Source of the DNA: an uncultured delta proteobacterium
GTDB taxonomy: Bacteria > Myxococcota > UBA727 > VGSZ01
Length of the DNA stretch: 64,000 nucleotides
Direction of reading: 5' to 3'
NCBI GenBank assembly: GCA_963775425.1
Contig: CAVZJB010000017.1
Span: 160,001 to 224,000 of the forward strand
Part shown: positions 37,827 through 49,789 of the stretch, in pieces
How the letters are laid out: every line of letters begins with the position of its first letter
How positions within the stretch are numbered: position 1 is the stretch's first letter
Notes under the pieces: model-generated
Databases searched by the model: none
What the model saw: the letters and a program-made list of their open reading frames with translations, nothing else
What the model was told of the DNA's origin: nothing
Translations under genes and position numbers: made by a program

Positions 37827-38539
37827 ATGCGCCTCGTCTTCGACCACGGCACCTTGGTGTTCCAGGACGTCCCCGCCGGCCTCGACCTCGGCGCGTTCGA
37901 AGGCGTTCGCTTCGATGCGCGCGTGAACGCATGGCGGGCGCGCGCGTGCGACCGCGAAGCGGTTTTGAACAATCTGCTGAGGCGGGGCCACGACGTCGTC
38001 GACGACACGCAGCGTGCGCTCGGCGGTCCGCGCGCCCTCCCCGACCTCGCGCTGCGCCCGTATCAAGACAGCGCGGTGCGCGCGTGGGAAGGAGCGCGCC
38101 GCCGCGGCGTCGTGGTCGCCCCGACGGGTAGCGGCAAGACGCGCATCGCGTTCGCGGCCATCGCGCGCTCCGCCTGCCGCACCCTCGTCATCGTGCCCAC
38201 GCGCGTCCTGCTCGAGCAGTGGTACGACGCCCTCGTGCACGCGGGCTTCGGGGCCGTGGGGCGCTACGGCGACGGCTTTCGCGAGATGGCAGCCATCACC
38301 GTGGCCACCATCGACGCGGCGTGGCGCTGGATGCACGTGCTCGGTGACGCGTTCGAGCTCGTGGTCTCGCGCGCTACCGGCGCGCGCGCGCGGAGAACCT
38401 CGTGCTCTGCGTCGACCGCGACCTCGCCTGCGCCGCCGGCGACCTCCCCGACAACGCCCGCATCGTACGCTTCCGAAAGCGCATCGACGTCGACGAGGTG
38501 CTAGCGGCCGTCAACGGGACGCTCCACGCGCCGTGCTGA
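37827..38539 (+). pseudogene. Internally deleted XPB/ResIII-like SF2 helicase joined out of frame to the C-terminus of a DUF790 (Bax1-like) domain
   Basis: LRPYQ, APTGSGKT, VPTRVLLEQW; homology stops at FELVV, just before DExH. From 38366 another frame reads LARYRRARAENLVLCVDRDLAC...RFRKRIDVDEVL*. Confidence 0.7.
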
Positions 38540-41965: not shown

Positions 41966-42676
41966 TCAGGGCGCGGCGGCCTCAGCGTCGTGCGAACGAA
42001 CGATGAGGTTGTCGAAGACGGTCTCGGAGTGGTCGATGACGGCGACGCCCACGCGCCCGCTGCGCACGGCGACAGGCACGTCGTCGTCGAAGATGCTGTT
42101 GCCGTCCATCTGCACGGAGAGGTGTGTCCCCACGAGGTCGACGTCGACGTCGATGGCCTGGCCGACGTCGTGCGGGGCCGGCACCTGCCCCTCCGCGGTG
42201 AACATCGTGAACGTGCAGTCCCGGATCTCCTGCACCATGAGATCGCCGAGGGCGCCGTTCTCCGACAGCGCGCGGAAGTTGAGCTGCACGCGGTTCGCGG
42301 GGTCCTGCGAGCGGAGCACCAACACCTTGTCGACGCGCAGCACGGACGCCATCCGCACGTGCACCGAGAGGTCCTGCGCCTGCGCCGTGGACCAGATCGC
42401 GTGCGTCATGAGCGAGTCCGGGCACGGGCCGGGGACCTGCTCGGGGCCGGTGCCGACGTACCAGCCGTCCTCGACGTCCCACGCGCCGCCCTCGCTCGCG
42501 AAGGTCGCGTCGTTGCCGTCGTTGAAGTCGATGCACGCGGTCTCGCTGCCGTCGAGGTCGCTGCATGAAAAGTCGCTCGCGTCCGGCAACGGGTGGTCGA
42601 TGGCGTCGGGCCCGCTCCCGACGGGTCCACACGCGCAGGTCCCGAGCACACCGGCGATGACGATGATCTTCTTCAC
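41966..42676 (-). CDS. Lipoprotein with concanavalin-like (DUF1080/LamG-type) beta-sandwich
   Basis: GTG start, lipobox-like CACG; WDVEDG, SGRVGV, VFDNLIV. Confidence 0.6.
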   Translation of the reverse strand: MKKIIVIAGVLGTCACGPVGSGPDAIDHPLPDASDFSCSDLDGSETACIDFNDGNDATFASEGGAWDVEDGWYVGTGPEQVPGPCPDSLMTHAIWSTAQAQDLSVHVRMASVLRVDKVLVLRSQDPANRVQLNFRALSENGALGDLMVQEIRDCTFTMFTAEGQVPAPHDVGQAIDVDVDLVGTHLSVQMDGNSIFDDDVPVAVRSGRVGVAVIDHSETVFDNLIVRSHDAEAAAP

Positions 42677-42790
42677 ACGGCCCCCTTGTCTTCGGCGAGC
42701 GACGCTGCAGCAGGCGTGCCTCCAGTTGCGCGGACCGCACCGGCGTCGTACCCGGGCGGTCGTGTTCCTCGAGAACCGAACGGTGACGCC

Positions 42791-43483
42791 GTGAAGATCC
42801 CCTCCTCCTGGACCGCGGCTGTCGGCGCCGAGTTGGACAAGCCGTACTTCCGCTCGCTCTCCGCGTTCCTCGACACCGAGCGCGCGCACAAGACCGTGTT
42901 CCCGCCGGCGAGAGACGTGTTCCGCGCCCTCGAGGTCACGCCGTTTGCCGACGTGCGCGTGCTGCTCCTCGGGCAGGACCCGTACCACGACGACGGCCAG
43001 GCGCATGGCCTGTGCTTCTCGGTGAAGCCGCCCACCCGGCCGCCGCCGTCGTTGAAGAACATCTTCAAGGAGCTGCAGACAGACCTCGGCTGCACGCCGC
43101 CCGAGCACGGCGATCTCACGGCGTGGGCGCGCCAGGGCGTGCTGCTGTTGAACGCGGTGCTCACCGTCGAGGCCCACCGCGCCAACTCCCACAAGGGCAA
43201 GGGTTGGGAGACGTTCACCGACGCCGTCATCGCCAGCCTGAACGCGCGGGAGACGCCGCTCGTCTTCTGCCTCTGGGGCGCGTACGCGCGCAAGAAGGCC
43301 AAGCTCGTCGACACCTCGCGCCACACCGTCATCGAGGGCGCGCACCCGTCGCCGCTGTCGATGAAGAAGTTCTTCGGCAGCAAGCCGTTCTCCGCAATCA
43401 ACGGGGCCCTCGCCGCCCAAGGACACCAGCCCATCACGTGGCAACTGGACGCACGGCCCCTCTCCCCGGTCGCGCACTCGTGA
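42791..43483 (+). CDS. ung: Uracil-DNA glycosylase (family 1)
   Basis: GQDPYH, AHGLCFSV, PPSL, QGVLLLN, HPSPLS all intact. Confidence 0.96.
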   Translation: MKIPSSWTAAVGAELDKPYFRSLSAFLDTERAHKTVFPPARDVFRALEVTPFADVRVLLLGQDPYHDDGQAHGLCFSVKPPTRPPPSLKNIFKELQTDLGCTPPEHGDLTAWARQGVLLLNAVLTVEAHRANSHKGKGWETFTDAVIASLNARETPLVFCLWGAYARKKAKLVDTSRHTVIEGAHPSPLSMKKFFGSKPFSAINGALAAQGHQPITWQLDARPLSPVAHS

Positions 43484-45057
43484 GCGCCGCCGACCCCACC
43501 GATACGCTCGAGCTCACGCCGTTGTTCGACGGCGGCGGCGAGCCCTGGCTTCCCCTGTTGAAGCCCGTCATCGAGAAGCAACGCGACGCGGGCGACTTCA
43601 TCGGCCCCGGGCGCGACAAGGGCATCGTGCCCGTGCGCGAGCTGACGTTCCAGGCGCTCAAGCCCAACCCGCCCGGCAAGTGGCGCGTGGTGATCTTCGG
43701 GCAGAACCCGTACCCGCGCGTGGAGTCGGCGACGGGCATCGCCATGTTCGACAACGCCTTCGCCGACTGGAAGGAACCCCAGTTCGGCAAGGTCACCTCC
43801 ATCCGCTGCATCATCAAAGCGGCGTGCATGAACAAGCTCGGCATCGAGAAGGCCACCTCCACCGCCGCCATCCGGTCGCTCCTCGCCAAAAACGACGTCG
43901 TCACGCCGCCCCAGTGGTTCCAGGCCATGCTCACCCAGGGCGTGCTCTTGTTGAACGCTGCGCTCACCGCGAGCAGCGACAACGCGGTGTCCACCTCGCG
44001 CCACACGAGCTTCTGGAAGCCCGTCGTGGAGGCGGTGGTCACCGAGATCCTGCGCGCCAAGCACGAACAGAAGGAGGGTGTGGTCTTCGCCTGGTGGGGC
44101 GCGCACGCAAAGCTCCTGCGCGCCATGGTGGACAAGATCGCGCCGCGGTTCCCCGACGCCGTCGTCCGCCACGTCGACCACTGCAACCCCGCGGCGCAGG
44201 GGGACATGTTCTGCAACAAGGACCACTTCGGCGAGATCAACGCGGCGCTGTCGTCGCTGTCGATGAAGCCCGTGGACTGGCTGCCGGTGCAGGGCGGTGA
44301 CCTCGGCGCAGGCCAGGACGAGCACAAGCGCCTCGGCGACTTCATCGAGAGCACGCGCGAGCTGCACAAGCTCTACCTCGAGCGTCTCCAGGGCGTCGGC
44401 GACGAGCAGCTCGAGGAGCTCGAGGCCATCACGGGCCTCGCCACGCTCTCCGTCCCCACGTTGCCGGCGGCGGTGGAGCCGCTCCTCGCGCTGTTCCCCG
44501 GGCTCAAGCTGTTCGCGAAGAAGGCGGCGGAGCGCGCGCCGGAGCTGTTGAAGGCGGCGGCGGTGCCCGGGCTCACCGCCGACGAGGTGGGCGCGCTCTT
44601 CCTGTACACGACGGAGTCGCCGCTGTACCGCTCGCTGAACGCCGCGCTTCGCGACAAGAGCCGCGCGAAGGCGGAGCCGTGGCACGGCTACCTGCGGTTG
44701 TTCCTGAGCGCCCATGACAAGCTCGAGCGGCGCAACGAGAGCCTCTGGCGCGGCGTGCACAAGGACCTGCGCAAGGAGTACCCCACGGGCCGCACCGTCA
44801 CGTGGTGGGGCGTGTCGTCATGCACGACCAAGCTGGCGGTGGCCAAGGGCTTCCTCGGCCAGAAGGGCAAGCGGATGCTGTTCGAGGTCAAGCCCAGGAG
44901 CGCCGTGAGCATCCGCGCGTTCTCGGCGTTCACCGGTGAAGAGGAGCTCGTGTTGGCCCCCGGCACGAGCTTCTCCGTCGTCGACGTCGCCCCCGGCGAC
45001 GACGGCCTCGTTCACGTGAAGCTCGAGGAGCTCGAGCAGGAAAGGCTCATCCGCTGA
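43480..45057 (+). CDS. Fusion of a divergent family-1 UDG-like domain and an R-S-E (cholera-toxin-like) mono-ADP-ribosyltransferase domain (525 aa)
   Basis: N-terminus: VVIFGQNPYP, ATGIAMF, QGVLLLNAALT, VFAWWG, HCNPAA, FGEINAAL, PVDW. C-terminus: ALFLYT..LYRSLNAALR, LWRG, VSSCT, GEEELVLAPG. GTGA overlap with ung. Confidence 0.88.
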   Translation: MSAADPTDTLELTPLFDGGGEPWLPLLKPVIEKQRDAGDFIGPGRDKGIVPVRELTFQALKPNPPGKWRVVIFGQNPYPRVESATGIAMFDNAFADWKEPQFGKVTSIRCIIKAACMNKLGIEKATSTAAIRSLLAKNDVVTPPQWFQAMLTQGVLLLNAALTASSDNAVSTSRHTSFWKPVVEAVVTEILRAKHEQKEGVVFAWWGAHAKLLRAMVDKIAPRFPDAVVRHVDHCNPAAQGDMFCNKDHFGEINAALSSLSMKPVDWLPVQGGDLGAGQDEHKRLGDFIESTRELHKLYLERLQGVGDEQLEELEAITGLATLSVPTLPAAVEPLLALFPGLKLFAKKAAERAPELLKAAAVPGLTADEVGALFLYTTESPLYRSLNAALRDKSRAKAEPWHGYLRLFLSAHDKLERRNESLWRGVHKDLRKEYPTGRTVTWWGVSSCTTKLAVAKGFLGQKGKRMLFEVKPRSAVSIRAFSAFTGEEELVLAPGTSFSVVDVAPGDDGLVHVKLEELEQERLIR

Positions 45058-46385
45058 TGCAGCTCCCCAGCTTTCTCCGCCCCCTCCCCGACGCTCCACG
45101 CATCGCCGACGCCCAGCGCGCGGACAAGGCCTTTCGCTCCACGCGCATCGGCATCCTGGTGGCGCTCACCATCGTCTACGGCTTCTTCTACACGTGCCGC
45201 ATCGGCCTCTCCGTCGTCAAGAAGCCGCTGCTTGACGCCGGCATCTTCAACGCCACGGAGCTCGGCCAGATCGGCGCCTGCCTGTTGTGGGGCTACGCCC
45301 TCGGCAAGCTCATCAACGGCGTGTTCGCCGATCGCGTGAACGTCTCGCGCTTCATCCCCCTCGGCCTGGCGCTCTCCGCGGTGGCCAACCTGGCCATGGG
45401 CAGCAACTCGCTGTTCGTCGTCGCGTGCCTGTTGTGGGTGGTGAACGGCCTGTGCCAGGGCGTCGGCGCCACGGCGAGCGTGGTGAGCCTCACGCAGTGG
45501 TTCTCCGGCAGCGAGCGCGGGCGCGTATACGGCATCTGGAGCGCGGCGCACTCCGTCGGCGAGGGCATGACCTTCTTCGGGACCTCCGCGCTCGTCGCCG
45601 CCATGGGTTGGCGCGCGGGCTTCCTCGGGCCCGGCGGCGTCTGCCTCGTCATCGCGTGCGGCGCCGCGCTCGTGTTGAAGGACCGCCCGCAGGCGTACGG
45701 CCTGCCGCCCGTGTCGGACTGGAAGGGCGAGCCGCACGAGGAGAAGTCCGCGTCGACGCGCGCGGCCCAGCTCGAGGTGGTGAAGAACCCGGCCATCTGG
45801 GTCTGCGCCATCGCGTCCGCGCTCATGTACGTGTCGCGCTACGCGGTGAACAACTGGGGCGTGCTCTACCTGCAGGAGGCGCGCGGCTACACCCTCATCG
45901 AGGCGGGCAGCATCGTCGGCATCAACACCATCGCCGGCTTCATCGGCTCCGCCGCCTACGGGTTCATCTCCGACCTCGGCTTCAAGGGGCGCCGGCCGCC
46001 CGCCACGTTCCTCTTCGGGTTCGTCGAGGTTCTCGCGCTCTTCGTGATCTACTACGGGCCCAGGAGCACCGTGCTGTTGTCGGTGGCGTTCTTCGTCTAC
46101 GGGTTCACGATGTCGGGCATCCTCGCGGTGCTCGGCGGACTGTTCGCCGTGGACCTGTCGTCCAAGCGGGCCGCGGGCATGGCCATGGGCTTCGTGGGCT
46201 TCATCTCGTACGTCGGCGCCACCGCGCAGGACCTCGTGTCGGGCTACCTCATCGACCTCGGCACCCACACGGTGAACGGCGTGAAGCACATCGACTTCAC
46301 CATCCCCATCATCGGCTGGGTGGGGGCGTCGGTGCTGAGCATGCTGCTGGCGGCCACCCTCTGGAAGGTCCGCACCAGGGAGTGA
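45057..46385 (+). CDS. MFS organophosphate:Pi antiporter (GlpT/UhpT family)
   Basis: YGFFYTCR, YALGKL, QWFSGSERG..IWSAAH, DRPQAYGLPP, YVSRYA; 12 TM. Confidence 0.9.
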   Translation: MQLPSFLRPLPDAPRIADAQRADKAFRSTRIGILVALTIVYGFFYTCRIGLSVVKKPLLDAGIFNATELGQIGACLLWGYALGKLINGVFADRVNVSRFIPLGLALSAVANLAMGSNSLFVVACLLWVVNGLCQGVGATASVVSLTQWFSGSERGRVYGIWSAAHSVGEGMTFFGTSALVAAMGWRAGFLGPGGVCLVIACGAALVLKDRPQAYGLPPVSDWKGEPHEEKSASTRAAQLEVVKNPAIWVCAIASALMYVSRYAVNNWGVLYLQEARGYTLIEAGSIVGINTIAGFIGSAAYGFISDLGFKGRRPPATFLFGFVEVLALFVIYYGPRSTVLLSVAFFVYGFTMSGILAVLGGLFAVDLSSKRAAGMAMGFVGFISYVGATAQDLVSGYLIDLGTHTVNGVKHIDFTIPIIGWVGASVLSMLLAATLWKVRTRE

Positions 46386-46441
46386 CACCGTTTCCTCGGG
46401 GTGCGCATTGCGGTCGGCGGCGGCCCCGGTAGCGTTCGCGC

Positions 46442-47437
46442 ATGAAGAAGCTGTTGCTCCTCGGGGCCGGCCGCATCGGCCAGGTCCACGCGCGAAACGT
46501 CCTCGCGAGCGGCGCCGCTCGCCTGGTGGGCGTCGTCGACGTCAACCGCGCCGCCGCCGAAGCGCTCGCCGAGGCCACGGGCGCGCGCGTGTTCGACAGC
46601 GCCGACGCCGCCCTCGACACCGCCGACGTGCAAGGCGTGATGATCTGCACGTCCACGGATACGCACGTCGACATGATCCTCAAAGCGGCGGCGCGCACGC
46701 TCCCGGTGTTCTGCGAGAAGCCCGTCGACCTGGCCATGGCGAAGGTGCAGCGCTGCCTCGCGGAGGTGAAGTCCGCCGGCGTCCCGTTGCTGATGGGCTT
46801 CAACCGCCGCTTCGACCCGAGCTTCAAGTCGCTGCACGACCGCCTGCGCGAGATCGGCTCCGTGGAGGCCGTGGCCATCACGAGCCGCGACCCGCAGCCG
46901 CCGCCGCCGGCGTACGTGAAGACGTCCGGCGGCATCTTCCGCGACATGATGATCCACGACCTCGACATGGCCCGCTTCCTCCTCGGCGACGAGCCCGTCG
47001 AGGTCTTCGCCACCGGCGCCGCCCTCGTCGATCCCGAGATCGGCAAGGCCGGCGACGTCGACACCGCCACGGTGGTGCTGCGCACCGCGCGCGGCGCCAT
47101 GGTCACCATCCACAACAGCCGCCGCGCGGTCTACGGCTACGACCAACGCATCGAGGTCTTCGGCGAGAAGGGTGCGCTGTTCGCAGGCAACCCCACGCCC
47201 ACCACGGTGGTCAGGCTCGGCGCCGACGGCGCCGTCGGCGACAAGCCGCTGCACTTCTTCCTCGAGCGCTACGCCGACGCCTACCGCGCCGAGCTCGCCC
47301 ACTTCCTCGACGTCATCGACGGGAAGGCCGCGCCGCTCGTGACCGGCGAAGACGGCCGCCGCGCGCTCGCCCTGGCCGACGCGTGCGAGGCCTCGTTGCG
47401 CTCGAAGAGCGCCGTGGCCGTCGGGGTGTCGTCGTGA
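46442..47437 (+). CDS. iolG: myo-Inositol 2-dehydrogenase
   Basis: GAGRIG, CEKP, GFNRRFDP, TSRDP, SGGIFRDMMIHD, YGYDQR, FFLERY. Confidence 0.92.
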   Translation: MKKLLLLGAGRIGQVHARNVLASGAARLVGVVDVNRAAAEALAEATGARVFDSADAALDTADVQGVMICTSTDTHVDMILKAAARTLPVFCEKPVDLAMAKVQRCLAEVKSAGVPLLMGFNRRFDPSFKSLHDRLREIGSVEAVAITSRDPQPPPPAYVKTSGGIFRDMMIHDLDMARFLLGDEPVEVFATGAALVDPEIGKAGDVDTATVVLRTARGAMVTIHNSRRAVYGYDQRIEVFGEKGALFAGNPTPTTVVRLGADGAVGDKPLHFFLERYADAYRAELAHFLDVIDGKAAPLVTGEDGRRALALADACEASLRSKSAVAVGVSS

Positions 47438-48114
47438 GCCTCGACGCGGTCTTTCGCGGGTTTCACATCGCCGCGGGCGGGATCGCGCTCGGCTCGATGT
47501 GGATCCCGATGTTCGCCAAGAAGGGCGGCCTGCTCCACCGCCGCGCCGGCTGGGTCTACGCCGTGGCCATGTGGGTGGCAGCGCTCTTCGCGTGGGTGGT
47601 CTGCGCCGGGCGTCTCCTCGACCAGAAGCCGGCCAACGACCACAACGCGCTGTTCCTCGCGTTCGTCGGGCTGCTCGCCGCCAACAACGCCGCCGTCGGT
47701 GTGCGCGTGCTCCGCAGCAGGGGGCGGACCGACAAGCCCGCCGGTGCGCTCGACGTGGCGATGAGCGCGCTGCTCCTCGTCGGCAGCGTCGGCCTGGCGG
47801 TGCTCGGCGTCACCGGCGGCCGCATCCTCGACGACGTCTTCGCCGCCCTCGGCGTGTTCCTGTCCCTCCGTCAGCTCCGGTTCTGGCTGCGGCCGCCGGC
47901 GCTGAAACAGCAGTGGTGGCTCGAGCACATGGGCAACATGCTCGCGTCGTGCATCGGCACGGCCACGGCGTTCCTCGTCGTCAACGCCGGGCACCTGGGG
48001 CTGTCCGGTCCTGCCGTGCTCGTCGTGTGGATCGCCCCCGGCGTCGTCGGCGCCTTCGGCATCCGCGTCTGGACGCAGCGCTACCGCAAGCGCTTCACCA
48101 AGGGGGCCGCTTGA
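47434..48114 (+). CDS. DUF2306-like His-containing membrane protein
   Basis: HIAAG..KKGG..HRRAGWVY; WWLEHMGNM..IGTATAF. Confidence 0.7.
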   Translation: MSLDAVFRGFHIAAGGIALGSMWIPMFAKKGGLLHRRAGWVYAVAMWVAALFAWVVCAGRLLDQKPANDHNALFLAFVGLLAANNAAVGVRVLRSRGRTDKPAGALDVAMSALLLVGSVGLAVLGVTGGRILDDVFAALGVFLSLRQLRFWLRPPALKQQWWLEHMGNMLASCIGTATAFLVVNAGHLGLSGPAVLVVWIAPGVVGAFGIRVWTQRYRKRFTKGAA

Positions 48115-48890
48115 ACACCAGGCTCGACGGGCGCGTCGTCATCGTCACCGGGAGCACGCAGGGGCTCGGCGAAGCCGTCGCGCTCGCCTGCGGCGACGAG
48201 GGCGCCGCGGGGGTGGTGGTCACGGGCCGAAGCGAGGCAAGGGGCCGCGCCGTCGCGGAGGCGCTCGAGCAAAAGGGCGCGCGAGCGCTGTTCGTGCGCG
48301 CCGACCTCGAGGACGTCGACGACTGCCGCGCCGTCGTCGCACGCGCGGCGGACCGGTTCGGACGCGTCGACGGCCTGGTGAACAGCGCGGCCACCACCGC
48401 GCGCGGTCACCTCGACGACACGTCCGTGGAGCTGTGGGACCGGGTGATGGCGTTGAACGTCCGCGCGCCGTTCGTAATCACGCAGGAGGCCGTGCGTGTG
48501 ATGAAGGCCGGCGGCCGCGGCGGAAGCATCGTGAACATCCTGTCCATGAGCGCCAACGGCGGTCAGCCATTTCTGTGCGCGTATTCGACGTCGAAGGGCG
48601 CGCTCGCCACGCTCACCAAGAACAACGCCCACGCGCTGCGCAAGGACCGCATCCGCGTGAACGGGCTGCGCATCGGGTGGATGGAGACGCCGGGCGAGCA
48701 CGCCGTCCAGGCCTCCGACGGCGCGGCCGCGGACTGGCTCGCGCGCGCGGCGGCGGCGCAGCCCTTCGGTCGCATCCTGCGCACGGGCGACGTCGCCGGC
48801 TTGTGCACGTGGCTCTTGTCCGACGCCGGCGCCATGATGACGGGGTCGCTCATCGACTTCGATCAGAACGTCGTCGGCGCGTACGATTGA
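48111..48890 (+). CDS. Short-chain dehydrogenase/reductase
   Basis: TGSTQGLG, LVNSAA, YSTSK, IRVN; TTG start overlaps the upstream stop. Confidence 0.92.
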   Translation: MNTRLDGRVVIVTGSTQGLGEAVALACGDEGAAGVVVTGRSEARGRAVAEALEQKGARALFVRADLEDVDDCRAVVARAADRFGRVDGLVNSAATTARGHLDDTSVELWDRVMALNVRAPFVITQEAVRVMKAGGRGGSIVNILSMSANGGQPFLCAYSTSKGALATLTKNNAHALRKDRIRVNGLRIGWMETPGEHAVQASDGAAADWLARAAAAQPFGRILRTGDVAGLCTWLLSDAGAMMTGSLIDFDQNVVGAYD

Positions 48891-48937
48891 GCGACGACGG
48901 AGCTCCGCCGGGCGCGTGCGGGTATCATCGAGCGCGC

Positions 48938-49789
48938 ATGACCTCCCGCACGCCTCGCCTCGCGCTGTTCGACCTCGACGGCACCCTCTTGACGTCGAAG
49001 CGCACCATCCTCGAGGACAACGTGCGGGCGCTGCGGCGCTTGATGGACGCCGGCGTGCTCGTGGCGTTTTGCACCGGAAGGCCGCCGGGGAGCGCGCAGC
49101 GGTATGTCGACGTCGTGAGACCCAACGCGCCGCTCATCCACTTCAACGGCGCGGTCGTGCGCGACGCCGCCGACGGCCGCGTCATCTTCTCGCGCTCGGT
49201 TCCCGCGGACACGGCGCTGGCGGCGCTGGTGGCGGCCGACGGTCACGCGCGCCACGCCAACATCTATGTCGGCGACGCCATCTGGATCGAGCGACGCTCC
49301 GAGACCTCGCGCGTCTCCGAGGAGAAGGACGGCGTGGCGCACACCGTCGTCCCGGACCTCCGAGGCCGCCTGAGCGCCGGCGGCGGCGCGCTCACCGGCG
49401 GCGCGCGCTCGAGCGCCGGGGACGTCCGGCCGACCAAGGTCATGCTCATCGCCGACGCCCCGCGCGTCCCCGCCATGACGGCAGCCGTCTCCGCGTCCGT
49501 CGGCGACGGCGCCGCGCTGGTCAACTCCGAGCCCGAGTACCTCGAGGTGCTCCCGCGCGGCGTCTCCAAGAAGACCGCGGCGGAGGCGCTGTGCGGGCAC
49601 CTCGGCCTCACGCTCAACGACGTCGTCGCTTTCGGCGACAACCTCAACGACCTCGATCTCCTGGTCGCCTGCGGCCGCGGCGTCGCCATGAGCAACAGCC
49701 ACCCCGAGGTGCTCGCGCGCGTCTCCGCGCACATCGGCGACAACGACAGCGACGCCATCGCCCGCTTCCTCGACGAGCTCTTCGCTTGA
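48938..49789 (+). CDS. Cof-type HAD IIB phosphatase
   Basis: DLDGTLL, CTGR, NGA, GVSK, FGDNLND. Confidence 0.92.
   Translation: MTSRTPRLALFDLDGTLLTSKRTILEDNVRALRRLMDAGVLVAFCTGRPPGSAQRYVDVVRPNAPLIHFNGAVVRDAADGRVIFSRSVPADTALAALVAADGHARHANIYVGDAIWIERRSETSRVSEEKDGVAHTVVPDLRGRLSAGGGALTGGARSSAGDVRPTKVMLIADAPRVPAMTAAVSASVGDGAALVNSEPEYLEVLPRGVSKKTAAEALCGHLGLTLNDVVAFGDNLNDLDLLVACGRGVAMSNSHPEVLARVSAHIGDNDSDAIARFLDELFA

Follow-up and report, generated by a model that had tools for sequence, protein, structure and literature searches.

Why would a bacterium join a uracil-DNA glycosylase (UDG) fold that has lost its catalytic aspartate to an ADP-ribosyltransferase (ART)? The question is raised by a gene in a stretch of 64,000 nucleotides from an uncultured delta proteobacterium of the Myxococcota (assembly GCA_963775425.1, contig CAVZJB010000017.1, positions 160,001 to 224,000), which we call the window. 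The gene (43480..45057, + strand) encodes a protein of 525 aa in which a UDG-like domain is followed by a helical linker and an ART domain, and it overlaps the end of a canonical family-1 ung gene. An earlier note on this DNA, the sequence-only reading, had compared the two glycosylase domains and proposed a sensor that binds but does not cut. Here, we describe the homologues, structure models, genomic neighborhoods and promoter regions that bear on this proposal. We favor the reading that the N-terminal domain recognizes a base or lesion without cutting and thereby steers reversible mono-ADP-ribosylation in response to DNA damage, and we put its probability at about 0.5.

Substitutions in the UDG-like domain

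The UDG-fold domain comprises about residues 1-275 (43480..44304, + strand) and belongs to a subfamily related to the UNG of Nitratifractor salsuginis, from which it differs by the lack of the catalytic Asp. The alpha/beta fold of UDGs is present (Foldseek template modeling scores of 0.76-0.79 to 5x3g/5x3h, in addition to matches with many canonical UNGs), and the domain scores below the curated cut-offs of its family (17.7 vs 24.3 bits for Pfam UDG, 77.9 vs 162 for the best NCBIfam ung model). With the adjacent Ung it shares 25% identity over 253 alignment columns. This Ung, as well as those of E. coli and human, has the same fold and the pocket residues Gln, Tyr and the Asn of LLLN in common with the fusion protein. 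The differences lie in the catalytic motifs. GQDPYH, the family-1 motif A with its general-base Asp, is replaced by GQNPYPR (G74-R80, 43699..43719, + strand), where Asn76 stands in for the Asp and Gln75 and Tyr78 are kept. HPSPLS, the family-1 motif B, has its counterpart in HCNPAA (H234-A239, 44179..44196, + strand), which the family alignment reads as NPAAQG; the Leu finger is absent in both alignments. The Pro-rich loop and the stacking Phe of canonical Ung differ as well, the latter being Met89 in the fusion protein. The LLLN motif (L156-N159, 43945..43956, + strand) provides the Asn of uracil specificity, and N159 is invariant in 64 of 64 aligned domains and in our alignments A1-A4. Thus, the exchange of Asp for Asn76 and the retention of Q75, Y78 and N159 in the base pocket, both described in the sequence-only reading, hold on closer analysis.

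Two further statements of that reading stand in part. It had the PPS loop of Ung replaced by an insertion. The run of prolines is indeed gone, but its Ser stays as S107 (within TSIR) and the insertion is a trait of the whole subfamily, as described below. It also had the catalytic His kept in HCNPAA. The motif itself and the loss of the Leu are as described, whereas the retention of the His depends on the alignment and is probably wrong. H234 pairs with the catalytic His in pairwise BLAST, in phmmer and in a profile built from close fusions only, and this pairing is gapless toward the C-terminal side. In the alignment of 64 domains and in a profile that includes free-standing forms, it is N236-P237 that pairs with the H-P of active enzymes, and this holds both for the 'EHP' of Nitratifractor and for the canonical 'HPSP'. 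The family alignment is gapless from the preceding strand and places a deletion of two residues in the loop, compared to the Leu loop of canonical Ung. Across the wider clade of ART-fused forms, position 234 is H, G, N, S, F or A, and position 236 is Asn in 14 of 16 rows, with one His and one Gly. Most likely, the position of the catalytic His is that of N236 and not H234, and on the family alignment Asn would now occupy both catalytic positions. Whichever alignment is taken, the catalytic His is therefore not conserved in the ART-fused clade.

Of 7998 candidates scored in a word-indexed search, 1130 are homologues at E<=1e-5. All counts on 120 proteins refer to the window protein and its 119 best homologues, which share 56-69% identity with it and come from Myxococcota, Gemmataceae and many actinomycetes (Streptomyces, Micromonospora, Nonomuraea and others). 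Motif 1 reads GQNPYP in 117 of these and GQNPFP in one, while two do not match the pattern. Motif 2 is H-x-NPAA in 117 and Y-x-NPAA in three. LLLN is found in 118, and the remaining two read LLMN and LMLN. Across phyla, the block GQNPYPRxESATGIAMFDN hardly varies and QGVLLLNA and NPAA are invariant or almost so, which places the segments lining the pocket among the most conserved parts of the protein. The sequence-only reading had named substitutions that are not conserved as a sign of simple decay and had proposed an alignment of homologues to look for them. With GQNP[YF]P in 118 of 120 proteins and x-x-NPAA in 120 of 120, decay does not describe what is seen; the substitutions at the Asp and in the Leu loop are, to judge from this pattern, under selection and far from chance.

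Loss of the catalytic Asp and fusion to signaling domains

Among solved structures, the unconventional family-1 UNG of N. salsuginis is the closest relative (5x3g/5x3h; phmmer E 2e-14). It shares with the fusion's N-terminal domain the GQxPYPR motif, an ESAxGxAF segment, a long insertion after this segment, the Ser that is kept from the Pro-rich loop, and a short loop where canonical Ung has the Leu loop. Since the N. salsuginis enzyme has these traits, the insertion and the missing Leu finger belong to the subfamily as a whole. In contrast to the window protein, which has Asn at both catalytic positions and an ART domain, the N. salsuginis UNG keeps GQDPYPR and H-P and is a free-standing protein of 263 aa. 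The subfamily includes forms in which both catalytic residues, Asp and His, are retained.

A full HMMER scan of 1.84 billion representative sequences with the N-terminal domain gave 1930 matches at E<=1e-3. The alignment of 64 domains was made from 62 members of a set formed by the 150 best matches and one earlier match, namely those that span the domain between motif 1 and motif 2; the query and the Ung beside the fusion were added. Both Asp and His are kept in 30 of the 64 domains, and none of these 30 carries an ART domain; 29 are free-standing proteins of about 230-310 aa (the adjacent Ung included) and one has 488 aa. Both residues are absent in 33 domains and the Asp alone in one. In all 16 ART-fused rows the Asp is absent and N, S, A or M is found in its place (as in GQSPYPR, GEAPYPR and GEMPYPR). 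In a tree of the domains from a quick IQ-TREE search the ART-fused forms make up one supported clade of 22 rows (Shimodaira-Hasegawa-like approximate likelihood ratio test, SH-aLRT, 99), and a second clade without Asp and His comprises nine rows (SH-aLRT 100) and includes proteins with zf-PARP, FHA and PBZ domains. The starred branches of this tree force at least two changes of state. The distribution suggests that loss of the Asp tracks fusion to signaling domains. The proposal of a UDG-fold sensor that binds without cutting and is coupled to an ART gains from this, as from the conserved substitutions and the kept pocket, and it would fit the split between 16 of 16 ART-fused forms without Asp and 30 forms with Asp and His but no ART; the caveat that Asn can be catalytic at this position stands, and we return to it below.

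The domains found beside UDG-like forms without Asp include protein kinase, RING and SAM domains, SAP with ART, VWA with ART and WWE with ART. The combination of VWA, UDG-like and ART domains occurs in 40 proteins of about 1050 aa (among them P0271-P0309) from Gemmataceae such as Urbifossiella limnaea. Four proteins (P0310-P0313, about 44% identity) from the diatom Seminavis robusta and from transcriptomes of marine eukaryotes join WWE, UDG-like and ART domains. Together with the zf-PARP, FHA and PBZ proteins, these architectures suggest that the UDG fold without Asp is a recurrent module of signaling proteins, many of which are linked to ADP-ribose or to the DNA damage response.

Several individual proteins deserve mention. 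P0159, P0164, P0176 and P0133 join the UDG-like domain without Asp to one of three partners, namely a Ser/Thr protein kinase, a RING finger or a SAM domain. P0196, P0205, P0206, P0222, P0223, P0231, P0236 and P0258 combine zf-PARP, a UDG-like domain without Asp and His, FHA and PBZ, and P0206 has FNIP repeats in addition. These proteins are probably eukaryotic. We found no published description of them, and a search of the ESM Atlas by features for zf-PARP/PBZ relatives returned bacterial UDG clusters only. They were also compared with the Dictyostelium protein APL, which has a circularly permuted macrodomain; this identification was rejected, as the domain order of APL is FHA-PBZ-macro, and not zf-PARP-UDG-like-FHA-PBZ, according to the accessible portion of its description (PMC5087659). 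P0029 (862 aa) carries a domain of the histone deacetylase family (PF00850) N-terminal to the UDG-like and ART domains, which may be a genuine fusion or result from two genes called as one.

The ART domain

The ART domain comprises about residues 363-525 (44566..45054, + strand) and scores 54.3 bits against Pfam PF01129, well above the cut-off of 22.3 (residues 363-520). The catalytic Arg is R424 (44749-44751, + strand). It is followed by S446-S447-C448-T449 (44815-44826, + strand) and by E487-E488-E489 (44938-44946, + strand). R424, the S446-T449 segment and E487-x-E489 are invariant in alignment A2. Among the 120 proteins SSCT is found in 118 and SSCS in two, and E[ED]E is present in 117 and not found in three. 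Foldseek places the domain close to the Vis toxin, Tre1, XopAI, ART2.2, C3, ExoS/T and HopU1. The catalytic Arg, the S-T-S-type motif, the ExE (ARTT) motif, the Pfam score and the fold are all those of the R-S-E (cholera-toxin-like) class. With its catalytic triad intact, the ART domain looks active. Membership in the R-S-E rather than the H-Y-E clade leads us to expect mono- rather than poly-ADP-ribosylation. In the accessible text of a 2021 review of bacterial ADP-ribosylation systems (PMC8120803), enzymes with ExE such as cholera toxin, MTX and SdeA modify arginine, and the DNA-targeting Scabin and SCO5461 have QxE.

A macrodomain partner

Relatives of the fusion gene were found at 524 loci when one genome per species was scanned; all counts of loci refer to the best 80. 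Directly upstream of the fusion, 65 of the 80 loci carry a macrodomain gene (about 220 aa, Pfam Macro above cut-off). The two genes are divergent in 57 of these pairs and on the same strand in 8. The 15 loci without a macrodomain neighbor lie on contigs of metagenome-assembled genomes from Myxococcota or other groups, and four to five of them have short flanks. In a Streptomyces locus (L072, 5326-7587, + strand) the macro, UDG-like and ART domains are encoded by a single open reading frame (ORF) of 753 aa, and a cluster in the ESM Atlas holds 73 actinomycete proteins of about 789 aa with the ART domain in 100% and the macrodomain in 79% of its members. The partner macrodomain was compared with the motifs of hydrolytic MacroD-like macrodomains (N-x6-GG[V/L/I]D and G[V/I/A][Y/F]G). 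It has N-x6-GG[VLT]D, and its second motif reads G[ML]GAxTG instead of GVYG. Its structure model (mean predicted local distance difference test score, pLDDT, 73) is nearest to the yeast ADP-ribose-1''-monophosphatase Ymx7 (E 2e-10).

The same macrodomain family has a second type of partner. In the genome of the window (G000, contig C4, locus L081, 1393-3546, - strand) a PARP homologue of 472 aa with WGR, PARP_reg and PARP domains is followed directly downstream by a macrodomain gene of 240 aa. Eight of the 11 family genomes have this pair, with the two genes adjacent in 8 of 8. No PARP gene was found at any of the 80 fusion loci. Thus, one macrodomain family appears to serve either a break-sensing PARP or the UDG-like-ART protein. 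As the same family partners the WGR-PARP, the fusion protein would occupy the place that is held elsewhere by a PARP that senses DNA breaks.

Damage-type promoters in actinomycetes and the local ung operon

The 57 divergent intergenic regions between macrodomain and fusion genes were scanned for the PafBC (RecA-NDp) promoter, whose consensus is given as tGTCgg(N10)tA(N3)T in the available text of PMC8635444. An exact match to TGTC[AG]G-N10-TANNNT is present in 52 of the 57 regions, compared to 0.05 expected by chance from shuffled sequences. The exact motif faces the macrodomain gene in 52 regions, at a fixed distance, and the fusion gene in 19. The remaining 722 kb of the same loci contain 8 exact matches. 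When the GTC is required to be intact and up to one mismatch is allowed, the motif faces the macrodomain gene in 53 and the fusion in 44 of the 57 regions (shuffles 0.74). We therefore predict from these motifs that the macrodomain and fusion genes are induced by DNA damage in actinomycetes. Control by the SOS response was considered as well and rejected, since an actinobacterial LexA box (up to two mismatches) was found in 1 of the 57 regions.

For the organism of the window, the sole regulatory clue is the operon with ung. The canonical ung gene (42791..43483, + strand) has GQDPYHD and HPSPLS (as AHPSPLS), scores 307.7 bits against the NCBIfam ung equivalogs (cut-off 223) and matches Pfam UDG with an E-value of 1.1e-16. 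The GTG start of the fusion and the TGA stop of ung overlap by four bases (GTGA), and the fusion is translationally coupled to ung and in one operon with it in this genome. The adjacency of ung was considered as a conserved trait and rejected: a canonical ung beside the fusion was found at none of 82 other loci, including two from the family of the window's organism. A Ung query across the 80 loci matched 66, and the match was always the fusion's own N-terminal domain. Orthologues of the adjacent ung (59-71% identity) are present in 5 of the 10 other family genomes and lie on other contigs than the fusion where both occur. Because it is absent at the other loci, and ung orthologues lie on other contigs, the coupling is specific to this genome, and the adjacent ung, the comparison partner of the sequence-only reading, is a local accident of gene order. 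The genome also has a second canonical Ung paralogue (G000, contig C9, 389040-389693, + strand), which shares 47% identity with the Ung adjacent to the fusion.

A proposed model of base-lesion-gated ADP-ribosylation

The mechanism that we infer for DNA or lesion binding, for the loss of glycosylase activity, for the ART and its target and for the eraser starts from the domain architecture, the conserved substitutions, the macrodomain link, the damage-promoter motifs of actinomycetes and the local coupling to ung. The UDG-like domain would bind a flipped-out uracil-like base, a lesion or an abasic site in DNA and cut it not at all or very slowly. Binding would localize or switch on the C-terminal R-S-ExE mono-ART. 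The ART would then mark a protein at the lesion, predicted to be modified on arginine, or possibly the DNA itself, and the macrodomain, a putative hydrolase of the Ymx7 type, would take the mark off. The whole might act as a reversible ADP-ribosylation signal that is gated by base lesions, and hence as a functional analogue of a break-sensing PARP with its eraser. Three independent contexts, namely the coupling to ung in this genome, the PafBC motifs in actinomycetes and the architectures with zf-PARP, PBZ, FHA and WWE, all suggest that the protein works at damaged DNA and not in defense or as an exported toxin. A broader claim would be that bacteria, and by transfer some protists, have a counterpart of PARP that is gated by base lesions, in which a pseudo-glycosylase holds the base and gates an R-S-E ART, a macrodomain erases the mark, the PafBC regulon includes the pair in actinomycetes, and the module has been recruited repeatedly to eukaryotic damage-response proteins (zf-PARP, PBZ, FHA, WWE). 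We hold this broader claim tentatively, as a possibility that falls short of being probable.

Several observations weigh against our favored reading. The stacking Phe of canonical Ung is Met89 here, and two of the three Ser/Pro 'pinch' loops are missing together with the Leu finger, so that DNA binding must rest on other elements. The AlphaFold2 model of the fusion is good overall (mean pLDDT 85.2), but the pLDDT falls below 50 at residues 77-79 and the placement of the domains relative to each other is uncertain (predicted template modeling score 0.62). In the window's own genome the macrodomain orthologue (62% identity) sits on another contig, beside the PARP gene. The PafBC motifs concern the actinomycete orthologues and not the organism of the window. 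The fusion is patchy, being found in 3 of the 11 family genomes, and its identity within the family (63-64%) is no higher than to other phyla; this pattern makes it look like an accessory gene that moves horizontally. The eraser raises a further difficulty. A table in the accessible text of PMC8120803 lists DraG-like hydrolases, and not macrodomains, as the enzymes that remove ADP-ribose from arginine. As ExE predicts an arginine target and macrodomains are not known to act as arginine erasers, either the target or the role of the macrodomain may depart from the writer-eraser picture. Finally, there is the chemistry of the pocket itself. Asn at the position of the Asp is catalytic in enzymes of the MUG/SMUG1 type, and glycosylase activity of the UDG-like domain is therefore possible.

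Alternatives to a non-cutting sensor

This last point leads to the first alternative, in which the UDG-like domain has remained a glycosylase but with changed chemistry or substrate. Asn would position the water as in MUG, TDG or SMUG1, and the protein would be a bifunctional repair enzyme that removes a modified base and ADP-ribosylates as well. The invariance of Gln75, Tyr78 and Asn159 would suit such an enzyme, as would the presence of Asn, and not of random residues, at both catalytic positions. Moreover, the N. salsuginis relative has been deposited as a UNG despite the same insertions and short loop, and it is reportedly an active glycosylase. Against this stands the variation in the ART-fused clade, where the Asp is replaced by N, S, A or M and the position of the catalytic His is not kept as His; no single catalytic residue is thus conserved. 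The free-standing relatives all keep Asp and His, as expected if activity needs them. We consider an altered glycosylase unlikely.

Just as unlikely in our view is that the pocket binds a small molecule, such as free uracil or a nucleotide, a product derived from NAD or ADP-ribose, and that the domain is an allosteric sensor or a reader of the ART product. Here the same losses that burden the non-cutting lesion sensor count in favor: the loops that pinch DNA and the Leu finger are gone, and the stacking Phe is exchanged for Met, Leu or His. The domain also recurs next to readers and erasers of ADP-ribose (Macro, WWE, PBZ). On the other hand, S107 and the insertion common to UNG relatives of the Nitratifractor type are retained, the domain co-occurs with the DNA-binding zf-PARP and SAP, and in this genome it is coupled to ung. 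To our knowledge, no UDG-fold protein binds ADP-ribose.

The third alternative is a role in anti-phage defense or in a system of the toxin-antitoxin type. A dead UDG decoy would sense Ugi-type inhibitors or phage DNA with uracil and free a toxic ART, and the macrodomain would be the antitoxin, as in DarT-DarG. The pairing of an ART with a macrodomain recalls DarT-DarG, where thymidine in DNA is reversibly ADP-ribosylated and a link to DNA damage exists as well. The patchy distribution (3 of 11 family genomes) would fit too, one macrodomain orthologue has a faint match to DarG (E 0.009), and damage regulators of the WYL type can also control defense genes, according to the available text of PMC12392091. 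The differences from DarTG are nevertheless considerable. DarT belongs to a different ART family and DarTG is a co-directional toxin-antitoxin operon, whereas the fusion and its macrodomain are mostly divergent (57 of 65) or sometimes a single polypeptide. The macrodomain is Ymx7-like and not TARG1/DarG-like, and PADLOC gave no significant match to DarG or DarT, nor any match for the fusion, the triple fusion or the forms with VWA or WWE. The neighboring genes are unrelated housekeeping genes and not defense islands. Identities of 56-67% across three phyla are unlike those of fast-evolving decoys. A full-length copy was found in none of 50,697 phage records and in only 4 of 72,556 plasmid records, two of which are chromosome-sized. 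Binding of Ugi, which the sequence-only reading had brought up, is unlikely since the Leu finger is absent; the Nitratifractor UNG is reportedly insensitive to Ugi. A part for Ugi finds no backing in the PADLOC and phage searches, in the identity of about 60% across phyla or in the PafBC-type promoters of the actinomycete orthologues. A Ugi-decoy or defense role is therefore not favored. Least of all do we expect the UDG-like part to be a decayed remnant that has become an inert scaffold or dimerization domain for the ART; catalytic residues are lost and the NCBIfam ung scores are far under the cut-offs, but the near-invariance of the pocket-lining segments across phyla makes this very improbable.

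Comparison with known systems

The closest parallel to the non-cutting lesion sensor that we favor is found in PARP1-type sensors and in the operon of WGR-PARP and macrodomain in this genome, which follow the same logic of a damage-recognition module, an ART and a macrodomain. There, the transferase is of the H-Y-E type and the sensor a zinc finger or WGR domain, whereas the fusion has an R-S-E transferase and a sensor with a glycosylase fold. The R, S-x-S/T and ExE motifs of its ART are shared with the arginine-specific R-S-ExE enzymes Vis toxin, Tre1 and ART2.2. Those enzymes are toxins that are secreted or injected, or ecto-enzymes, with trafficking domains, or they come with immunity proteins of the DraG type. 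In contrast, Pfam shows no signal peptide or toxin-trafficking domain in the fusion protein, which is paired with a macrodomain. A precedent for a UDG fold that marks uracil in DNA rather than turning it over is UdgX, a protein of the UDG superfamily that binds uracil-DNA covalently, as stated in the accessible text of PMC10776899. UdgX belongs to another UDG family, cross-links covalently and lacks an ART domain. Systems that combine reversible ADP-ribosylation with a damage sensor are known, and a glycosylase fold in the part of the sensor would be new.

Homologues of the fusion are named 'ADP-ribosyltransferase domain-containing protein', 'NAD(+)--protein-arginine ADP-ribosyltransferase' or 'uracil DNA glycosylase' in databases. 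A search of the full-text literature, in which subscription-only papers and supplements lay outside, found no description of a UDG-like-ART fusion or of its macrodomain partner, and the words 'glycosylase' and 'uracil' are absent from the accessible part of the 2021 review (PMC8120803). Endogenous ADP-ribosylation in bacteria is poorly understood. For Streptomyces, damage-inducible erasers whose writer is unknown have been described (PMC9411070, in the part of the text that is available). A family with over 1000 members that share about 60% identity across three phyla offers a concrete and testable pair of writer and eraser with a built-in recognition domain. If the pseudo-glycosylase indeed reads base lesions, it would be the first glycosylase fold to serve as the sensor of an ART, and the principle of PARP would then hold for base damage as well as for strand breaks. 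Such a role would also account for the uncharacterized eukaryotic proteins that join a UDG-like domain to modules binding poly(ADP-ribose). A natural uracil binder that does not cut might in addition be of use as a reagent to detect uracil or abasic sites.

Other genes of the window

Downstream of the fusion lies a gene for a major facilitator superfamily (MFS) transporter of the UhpC/GlpT type (45057..46385, + strand), whose ATG overlaps the TGA of the fusion by one base (TGATG). The two genes are probably co-transcribed, but the transporter is not a conserved partner: neither an MFS nor a Gfo/Idh/MocA gene, nor a canonical ung, stands beside the fusion at any of the 80 related loci. A scan for sigma-70 promoters over 42300-46600 found no promoter-like site, and a terminator scan of the same region gave one terminator-like site, within the fusion gene and not above chance. 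A query for public sequencing runs, including RNA data, gave no entry. In the region 45057-49789 (+ strand) the MFS gene is followed by a Gfo/Idh/MocA oxidoreductase and then by more ORFs, two of which resemble, as judged by eye only, a short-chain dehydrogenase and a HAD hydrolase. This is a cluster of the sugar-phosphate type that has no tie to the fusion in other genomes. Further upstream in the window (37827-38504, + strand), an ORF that contains a Walker A segment like that of helicases (APTGSGKT) apparently ends early while another frame runs on, and it may be a frameshifted or split helicase gene.

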